A stretch of DNA of 33,761 bases from Candidatus Calescibacterium sp. (GTDB lineage Bacteria > Calescibacteriota > Calescibacteriia > Calescibacteriales > Calescibacteriaceae): NCBI GenBank assembly GCA_032249135.1, contig JAVVGL010000021.1:1-33761 (forward strand), written 5' to 3'. The position numbers were made by a program. Positions 15,001 to 18,000 of this stretch are shown here, piece by piece (the first letter of the stretch is position 1; each line of letters opens with the position of its first letter).

Positions 15001-18000
15001 TGGGAAATTTGAGTTTGCTTTTGATGAGAAAAGAAATATTATGTTTGTTGATGTTCTCGGAACACCTGATGAGTGTAGGTTCATTCTTGATGGATTCCAC
15101 ATAAGTAAAGAGGTTCTGAGGAAATTTTACAGAAAAACATCTTGGTATGAGGAAATAGAAGAAGCAAAAAAGAAGGATCCTGTTATGTGGAGAAATTTTG
15201 TAAAAACTCCACCGCCCAGCTTACCAGAGAATCTCAAAAACCTTGTTTCACAGCTTTACATGTCTTGCTGCAATGAGATTACAGAAAGAGAATGGTTCAA
15301 ATCTCCGCCTTTGAGTGATGTTGTCAAAAGTCTAAAAAGTCTTCTCGGTTAGTCATTAGATAATCATAAAAAGTGAGAGATTGTAAGTCCTATAATATAA
15401 GATAAGGCGAAATCTGTATTGAAAATGAAAGCTCCTCCAACATACCACATGGGCCAGAACTCACGAGGATAAAATTCGGGTAGCTCATTTTCTGAATTTG
15501 GTTTTGGCAAAGTTATTGCATTAAATATTCTCAAAGCTCGTGGAAAAGAAATGAAAGTAAAAATTAATCCCCACTTTTTAGTAAGCAATACGCCTAAAAC
15601 AACAAAAAAGTAAGGTAGTAAGATAAGAATTTTGCAGAGATTTTTCGTTTTTTCCTCTCCTAAAATTACGGGGAGTGTTTTTACACCCTTTTTCTCATCT
15701 TCTTTGATTTTATCAAGGTGTTTTCCAAACAAAATCAAAGAAGCCGTTATTCCATAGGGGAAAGATAAAATTATAACTTCGGGATTTATCTTAGAAGTTA
15801 TAACCCAAAAACCACCTGCTATCATCAAAGGTCCCCAAACCAAAAATACAATAAGTTCTCCCAAACCTCTGTATTTGAACTTAAAAGGAGGTCCCGAGTA
15901 AGAAAAAAGGAAAATGAATCCCAAAACTGCAAGAACAAGAACAAATATTCCTCTTTCAAGAAAAAGATAAAGTCCACACAAAAAGGCTAAAAGCAAAACG
16001 AGAAATCCTAAAATCCAGGTTTTTCTCTCACCGAAAAGATAAACAGGGTGAACACTATATACATTTCTGAAATAGTCAGGAAGATCTATTTTGTTTTTGT
16101 AGTCCCAAAGGTCGTTGAAAATATTGCTTGCAGCGTGTGCCAATAGCAAACCAAAAGAACATACTAAAAATAGATTCCACTCAAAAAGACCATACAAAGA
16201 TGCTAAAAGTCCGGAAATTAAGCAAGAAAAAAGAGTTATGGGTAAAGATACAACTCTCAAAATTCCAAGTATTGGTATATTTTCAAAACCTGAAACTCTT
16301 TTGAGAAAATTTGTCCAAATTTTCGCTTCAAATTCGTCAAACTTTGAAAAATAATTCATTTAAGCAAATTCAGATACTCCTTTTAATAAATTTTTTAATT
16401 AACAGAAACTTATTTTTAATTAGTTGGAACTTCTATTTTTTCAACTTTGAAGATTGAATAAAGTTGTCTGTGACCATATTTTCTTCTATATCTTTTTTTT
16501 CTTTTGAACTTGAACACAATTATTTTCTTTCCTTTGCCGTCTTCAATTTTTCTGAGTTTTACCGTAGCTCCCTCAACTTGTGGTTTTCCTAAAATAAATT
16601 TGTCGTCAAAAAAAACTGCAAGTACATCTTTCGTTTCAAGAACTTCTCCTACTCCAACTCCATGAATTCTTTCTGTTCTTATAAGATCTCCTTCTTTTAC
16701 TTTATATTGTTTTCCCCCAACTCTTATTACCGCATACATAAATCATTTATTTTATGATAGGAAAAAGTTTAAAAATAAAATTCAGAAATATTCATGAAAC
16801 TAAAAGTGAACGGGGAAAAAAATTTTCAATCTAAAACTAAAAACATTTTTTCAGTATAACTTTTCTTTTATGGAAAAGATATTCTTTGTGGCTTTGTATC
16901 TTCTGATAGCCCTTGCGGTAGGATTAGGAATAGTGATTTTACATATTTTGCTTTCTGAAAAACCAAAATCTTCTCCAAAGGAAAAATATTTGCCTTTTGA
17001 GAGTGGTATGGTTCCTTTTCATGATGCAAGAGGGAGATTGCCTGTTAAGTTTTACATTTTTGCTCTTGCATTCCTGATTTTTGATATAGAAGTCGCTTTG
17101 CTTTTTCCATATGTTCCGCTTGTAAAAGAACTTGGAAAATTTGGTCTTGTGGAGATTCTCTTTTTCTTCACAATTTTATTTCTCGCTTATATATATATAA
17201 GACAAACTGCATTGAAAGAATGGAAATAAATAACAAAAATAAAGTAGAAAAGCTGTGCTGAGAAAAAAAACTGTATCGGCAGATGTTGTATTAGTTGATG
17301 GTTCATCGCAATTTTTTCGGGCTTTTTTTCAGCTCAGAACACTTATAAACTCAAAAGGTTTCCCAACAGGAGCTATATATGGCTTTACAAACATAATCAG
17401 AAAAATAATCAAAGAATTTTCTCCTCGCTATGTGGCAATAGCATGGGACTCGCACAAAAAAATAAGAGCAGAAAAATTCAAAGATTACAAAGCTACAAGG
17501 AGAGAAACTCCAGATGACCTCAAAGTCCAAATTCCATACATAAAAAAGATAATAGACGCTTATGGTTTTGCAAACTTTGAAATAGAAGGTCTTGAAGCAG
17601 ATGATATAATAGCAACCTTAAAAAATAAAATACACCAGCAAAATCCAGACCTGAAAATCATAATCATAACATCAGACAAAGATATAATGCAAATAGTAGA
17701 TGAGAAAACTTATGTTTATGATCCACGAGCAGAAGAAAACGGAGATCCTCTTTTTACCCCGGAGAAGGTAAAGGAAAAATTTGGAGTAAGACCCGAACAA
17801 ATTCCTGATTATCTTGCATTAGTGGGAGATCAGATAGATAACATTCCCGGAATAAAGGGAATAGGACCAGAAGGAGCAAAAAAGCTCCTTGAGAAATTCA
17901 ATTCAGTTGAGCAAATTTTTGAAAGATTAGGAGAAGTAGATTTAAAATGGCGAAGGTTACTTTTTGGAGAGAGACAGAATGCTCTTTTATACAAAGAATT

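Follow-up and report, generated by a model that had tools for sequence, protein, structure and literature searches.

The window analysed here, 33,761 nucleotides of contig JAVVGL010000021.1 (Candidatus Calescibacterium sp., assembly GCA_032249135.1), encodes an intact bL21 of 107 aa (rplU, Table 1). The normal position of rpmA, the gene for bL27, is occupied by a gene for a UbiA/MenA-family prenyltransferase, and a NuoA-family gene lies on the other side of rplU. The UbiA/MenA-family neighbour recurs in three further genomes of the phylum (G002, G003 and G004); different genes adjoin rplU in G001, G005 and G006. Also present in the window are rpsN and rpsH, whose separation from the spc operon is a sign of operon break-up, and an RHS-repeat gene cluster as well as a gene for a 2066-aa FG-GAP/PKD protein (153-8891 and 21764-27964). 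The products of this cluster and the FG-GAP/PKD protein are probably surface-associated or secreted.

Bacteria are usually said to possess ribosomal protein bL27 without exception, and its gene is used as a marker for bin quality. The phylum was sampled through seven genomes from three genera of one family, all of them bins that are 82-87% complete and 1.9-2.3 Mb in size. The bin that contains the window (G000) comprises 2.1 Mb in 51 contigs, with 34% GC. Public runs that match the lineage are hot-spring metagenomes, and of the two bL21 records closest to this one, one carries the label Ca. Calescibacterium sp.

Table 1. Genes near rplU in the window, candidate replacement ORFs elsewhere, and 23S rRNA changes in the H80-H81 region.
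Feature	Position	Strand	Evidence or remark
UbiA/MenA-family prenyltransferase gene	window 15364..16359	-	PF01040 E 9.6e-33; 56 bp downstream of rplU
rplU (bL21)	window 16416..16739	-	PF00829 E 1.7e-30; present in 7/7 genomes; no rpmA after the gene
NuoA-family gene	window 16870..17229	+	PF00507 E 1.3e-24; upstream of rplU, divergent
rpsN-rpsH (uS14, uS8)	window 28127..28749	-	PF00410; tblastn with E. coli S14 and S8; translation
REWEKRL orphan ORF	G000:C20 ~9844-10023	-	candidate replacement
REWEKRL orphan ORF	L128:2423-2599	+	candidate replacement
23S rRNA pair	2246-2258		G-C to U-A; 6/6 23S genes
23S rRNA pair	2247-2257		A-U to C-G; 6/6 23S genes
23S rRNA pair	2261-2279		C-G to U-A; 6/6 23S genes
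23S rRNA pair	2262-2278		U-A to C-G; 6/6 23S genes
23S rRNA base	2274		A to U; 6/6 23S genes

Ribosomal protein genes and the break-up of their operons

An earlier note had described rplU as standing alone between these two neighbours rather than beside rpmA. The arrangement is as described, but it carries little weight as evidence for loss because the ribosomal operons of these genomes are shattered. Between two genomes of the same genus (G000 and G003), adjacency is conserved for only 424 of 1414 orthologue pairs (30%), and rplP, rpsN-rpsH, rplO and obgE likewise lie outside their usual operons. In both genomes the S10-spc-alpha genes are distributed over many pieces, among them S10-L2, S19-S3, a lone L16, a lone L29, L36-S13-S11-S4-S17-L14-L24-L5, S14-S8, L6-L18-S5, a lone L15 and rpoA-L17. 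The 5S rRNA gene (G000:C16:5335-5451) is found apart from the 16S-23S operon and adjoins rpoA in both.

Of the 54 core ribosomal proteins (a count taken from the available part of 10.1101/2021.01.31.429008), G000 encodes 52 and lacks only bL27 and uL30, and G003 encodes 51, with uL13 also missing. A search for uL30 (PF00327) gave nothing at E<=1 in any of the seven genomes. Its absence from the genomes, as previously noted, therefore stands; the statement that it is missing from its place does not, because rpsE and rplO have become separated and no such place is left. Loss of uL30 is ordinary and common, as the note had allowed, and fits the known lineage-specific losses in Halanaerobiales and CPR. 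The 26 proteins of the S10-spc-alpha and str operons are 33-72% identical to their E. coli queries, and even the poorly conserved bS21 is found by the filtered search at E<=0.0011 in four of five genomes. For bL25, we identified two short single-domain genes in G000 (C13:33840-34094 and C2:67722-67970) and one in each of the four other genomes tested.

Genes for ribosomal proteins drop out of metagenome-assembled genomes, an effect that acts on contigs rich in such genes and for which rpmA is listed among the modestly affected genes (PMC9723686, in part). The bins studied here are incomplete, and G002 lacks uL16 and G003 lacks uL13, both universal; therefore gaps in single bins occur. For about half of the G003 contig ends there is overlap with another end or a repeat, and several ends are unexplained; the lack of conserved gene order defeated attempts to close the gaps with G000. 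A missing rpmA could in principle be carried by a short or unusual contig or by a separate replicon outside every bin. We regard this as very unlikely. Seven independent misses at a miss rate of 15% would have a probability of about 2e-6 by simple arithmetic, although the bins are not fully independent. Of the genes anchored in a third genome, 122 of 131 were recovered in G000 and 124 of 140 in G003, so that the miss rate per bin is at most about 7-11% with true losses counted in. Even rRNA genes were assembled (5S in all seven genomes, 23S in all except G001), and the tRNA sets of G000 and G003 are nearly full, each lacking one gene relative to the other. Ribosomal protein genes occur in small groups inside ordinary contigs, which further weakens the artefact reading, and with gene order so shuffled, one common location that is hard to assemble is unlikely.

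Searches for bL27

Neither family model for bL27 (PF01016, TIGR00062) gave a match over its cut-off in any of the seven genomes; the weak TIGR00062 matches (E 0.09-0.36) lie within long ORFs. In other bacteria TIGR00062 exceeded the cut-off in 53 of 54 genomes, including all 48 of those that are at least 90% complete, and the weakest of these 53 bL27s scored E 3.4e-26. The one control without bL27 is a bin, G050. The sole weak PF01016 match (E 0.376), which G001 has ahead of its obgE, on the upstream side, was rejected since it sits within a 450-aa ORF, which we take from its motifs to be a dihydroorotase-type enzyme.

Genes for rplU and obgE were identified in all seven genomes, and no bL27 was found in the 1.5-kb flanks of either gene in any of them. 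Outside the lineage, the distance from rplU to rpmA is at most 4 kb at 68 of 78 loci in genomes, and at most 3 kb at 68 of 78 loci in metagenomes; within the lineage this is so at none. A search of metagenomes for relatives with an intact rplU-rpmA pair recovered only two loci of the lineage, neither of which has rpmA.

Because the genome search applies pre-filters, we built a custom HMM from 70 bL27 hits and applied it, unfiltered, to every stop-to-stop segment, covering G000 and G003 whole and 248 kb of G001. The best matches were E 4 among 78,681 six-frame segments of G000, E 2.8 among 69,993 of G003 (20 contigs, 1.87 Mb) and E 30 in the G001 sequence. The model recovered ten of ten held-out bL27s at E<1e-39. 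With simulated random substitution it still detected 86 of 100 sequences when 40% identity was retained, 35 when 30% was and 2 when 20% was, so that the unfiltered search can be trusted only down to about 40% retained identity. Profile-profile comparison against 465 small ORF pairs common to G000 and G003 gave no bL27, with 100% for the positive control; the top match (21%) was rejected as GroES. No AHKK-type motif occurs in G000 or G003, and the bL27s of G007 and G008, used as queries, gave no match better than E 0.11. Fragments from tblastn (best E 0.005) were also rejected, as none spans the protein and those common to both genomes fall in other proteins. Of 328 small, basic shared ORFs, 257 went into Pfam scans; seven that cross stretch boundaries were set aside, as were those that overlap rRNA or genes already identified.

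A bL27 that has diverged below about 30% identity could go undetected by these searches, and such a protein might have co-evolved with the altered rRNA helices described below. Consistent with this are the fall in HMM sensitivity at that identity, the bS21 of these genomes, which is barely recognisable (E 7e-5), and the unchanged helices H82-H88. The 33-72% identity of the 26 S10-spc-alpha and str operon proteins speaks against it, as do the score of the weakest control bL27 (E 3.4e-26) and the lack of a candidate among the conserved small ORFs or with the bL27 queries of G007 and G008. We therefore consider an unrecognisable bL27 very unlikely. The phylum-wide absence reported in the earlier note is borne out by both family models, by these stronger tests and by the 23S rRNA, and it is likely that the gene has truly been lost from the phylum.

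Helices 80 and 81 of the 23S rRNA

We inspected H80-H81 because we take these helices to be the site of the bL27 tail, including its contacts with individual bases. The region is altered in all six available 23S rRNA genes, from two genera, with base pairing kept throughout (Table 1). Relative to 29 controls, most of them lower in GC, all six genes depart from the usual base at 36 of 1210 conserved 23S columns. Among 40-nt windows, change is densest at 2241-2285, with seven of 34 conserved columns changed versus 29 of 1176 elsewhere (p 3e-5 by columns); counted as events, H80-H81 has four of 28 (p 0.007). The controls show zero to two changes each in 2241-2285, and two of them reach six in other 40-nt windows. 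Against a link with bL27, H82-H88, where the body of the protein binds, has no change in 62 columns.

A pattern with positions 2262, 2274 and 2278 left free had matches in 34 of 78 genomes. Five non-rRNA matches were dropped (three shown to be non-rRNA and two judged so by sequence), and U2262, A2274 and A2278 were then found in 32 of 32 other genomes. The variant also occurs in hot-spring contigs from runs not flagged as a source, comprising three DNA runs (with 0, 1 and 4 other letters) and one RNA run (0 other letters). Among hot-spring contigs at 80% likeness, only one loose end from other organisms crosses H81, with the usual sequence. U2274 was also seen in one unrelated rRNA fragment, and a scan of viral contigs gave two usable rRNA fragments from 65 loci. 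The H80-H81 change is support for bL27 loss that does not depend on binning, as judged from rRNA sequence, and it would be left unexplained if rpmA had merely escaped the bins; G050, the control bin without bL27, has the usual H81.

This support is tempered by a general divergence of the lineage's rRNA: the 16S rRNA is also among the most divergent, with 30 of 781 conserved columns changed. All six 16S genes have swapped pairs or bases at 946-1235, 951-1230, 793, 969, 19-916 and 1410-1490, positions that hardly vary among 21 controls; several of them are presumably near the P site. Further lineage-wide 23S changes are found at 1916, 1918, 1936, 1946-1960, 2455-2496, 2590-2604, 952-965 and 813-1194. 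They fall in H69, H71 and the peptidyl-transferase centre (PTC), and most match two haloarchaea. Near E. coli position 1923, the 23S gene of G006 (L486:4318-4869) is interrupted by about 676 extra bases, probably a group I intron, with a 184-residue open frame that, from its motif, we take to resemble a LAGLIDADG endonuclease.

Compared with two haloarchaea of one family, 19 of the 36 changed 23S columns have the haloarchaeal base, versus four of 30 in 16S (p 0.0015); C2262-G2278, U2274, A2455-U2496, C2590-G2604 and G1918 are included. These bases may simply be tolerated alternatives. Whole-gene transfer is not indicated, since 23S identity to haloarchaea is barely raised (0.62-0.64 versus 0.56-0.64 in controls). 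The archaeal and eukaryotic protein eL21 (PF01157) was over the cut-off in none of five phylum genomes, with four archaea positive as controls. Relative to E. coli, uL16 has no loop insertion in six of six genomes, its loop being of bacterial length, and is extended at its C terminus by 11-13 residues.

An unrelated, lineage-specific protein could fill the bL27 pocket, in which case H80-H81 may have changed to bind that protein. This reading agrees with gene loss; what sets it apart is a pocket that would be filled rather than empty. It has a precedent in eL21 versus bL27 (PMC2386862, PMC11354259, both in part), and the tail of bL27 is placed between H38, H81 and H85-87 (PMC11354259, likewise). 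One candidate is a basic orphan ORF of 50-64 aa with the motif REWEKRL...RIAGRIVE...IDF.P. It occurs in six of the seven genomes, in two genera, at 46-78% identity and in varying gene neighbourhoods. No Pfam or NCBIfam family covers it, and its 22 homologues in 5.8 billion proteins include one labelled Ca. Calescibacterium sp. However, the ORF was chosen by eye among about 140 that are unannotated, shows no link to the ribosome and was not found in G001 with the query used. Its structural model is of low confidence (pLDDT 65, pTM 0.31), and the fold search was without a match; an atlas search (best score 0.82) and a PDB sequence search (best E 0.49) likewise gave no family. Replacement by a protein appears unlikely, and rather probably the loss left the pocket empty or compensated for by RNA.

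Trans-translation and comparison with known systems

The earlier note placed bL27 at the PTC. The protein does reach it, but without a catalytic role (PMC4647459, in part), and the interest of its loss therefore lies in assembly and in the gating of tmRNA. From the available text of these sources, E. coli without bL27 is viable with unaltered catalysis (PMC4647459; PMC13450312). Viability falls 10,000-fold on deletion, partly through tmRNA, and is rescued 100-fold by deletion of ssrA (PMC12871816; PMC13450312), loss of bL27 making tmRNA and SmpB toxic. A 2026 proposal holds that bL27 is retained as a shield of translating ribosomes against tmRNA-SmpB (PMC13450312).

Trans-translation was not lost together with bL27 in this phylum. 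The genes ssrA and smpB are intact in all seven genomes, tmRNA having a paired acceptor stem and SmpB its C-terminal tail. The tmRNA tag (L340-L346) ends in NVLPA, versus LAA in E. coli; odd tags called by ARAGORN were rejected, being mis-called in four of the five detected, and the aligned tag is conserved. The only EF-P (L497-L501, L510) has the loop KIAQRQP rather than KPGKG, with AQRQ in five of five genomes. We rejected this loop as a correlate of bL27 loss because G007 shares the loop type and keeps rplU-rpmA.

As a whole, the explanation that we find likely is an ancestral loss of rpmA, with H80-H81 either relaxed or compensating and with neither a bL27 homologue nor eL21 as substitute. 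The ancestor of the family would have lost rpmA along with rpmD (uL30) amid extensive break-up of the ribosomal operons. Peptide bonds would be made without bL27, as E. coli ribosomes without it can do. The changes in H80-H81 may represent relaxation once binding of the tail no longer constrained the RNA, or a compensating stiffening, and gating of tmRNA would be unneeded here or taken on by altered RNA or another factor. A more far-reaching possibility, which we regard as doubtful, is that the P-site side of the 50S subunit was rebuilt in a thermophilic, free-living phylum: bL27 and uL30 dropped, H80-H81 and other pairs adjacent to the PTC of archaeal type, tmRNA interference solved by an RNA change or the REWEKRL ORF, and trans-translation retained in full.

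Under ancestral loss, a lineage with tmRNA-SmpB and without bL27 would be a natural counter-case to the shield proposal, and a natural test of the purpose of bL27 that bears directly on the open question of why it is conserved. The 23S changes named here could be tested as suppressors in E. coli. If true, the absence would also cap completeness scores for the phylum. Searches of the literature, which excluded most subscription journals, returned no report of a phylum without bL27; the search aimed at such a loss gave no title or abstract in comparative genomics, and the available parts of publications on Calescamantes (PMC11696919, PMC4791363, PMC5877337) make no mention of such a loss.

Several known systems can be compared (further literature, also in part: PMC7979765, PMC3737534, PMC12856214). 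Reduced-genome symbionts (less than about 1 Mb, several ribosomal proteins lost) are a poor match given genomes of 1.9-2.3 Mb and the nearly full set in G000. Closer are free-living lineages of normal genome size that lack a defined ribosomal protein throughout, such as bS21 in Actinobacteria, bL25 in Fusobacteria, uL30, bL34 and bS21 in Halanaerobiales, and uL1, bL9 and uL30 in CPR (10.1101/2021.01.31.429008, 10.1101/755876, PMC9297842; parts of each). Loss of uL30 fits this class exactly. In contrast, bL27 itself is seldom lost (10.1101/2021.01.31.429008, the tables of which could list rare losses), is not among the proteins that tiny genomes often lose (10.1101/755876) and is retained in CPR (PMC9297842), as far as the available parts of these sources go. 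With the E. coli rpmA deletion mutant the lineage shares a bacterial 50S subunit that lacks bL27 in the presence of tmRNA-SmpB; whereas the mutant is severely impaired, the lineage persists across three genera with H80-H81 changed. With the archaeal and eukaryotic large subunit, in which eL21 occupies the bL27 pocket and a loop of uL16 lies near 2249-2250 and 2275-2276, it shares the absence of bL27. Unlike that subunit, it has no eL21, has a uL16 loop of bacterial length and has kept tmRNA-SmpB.
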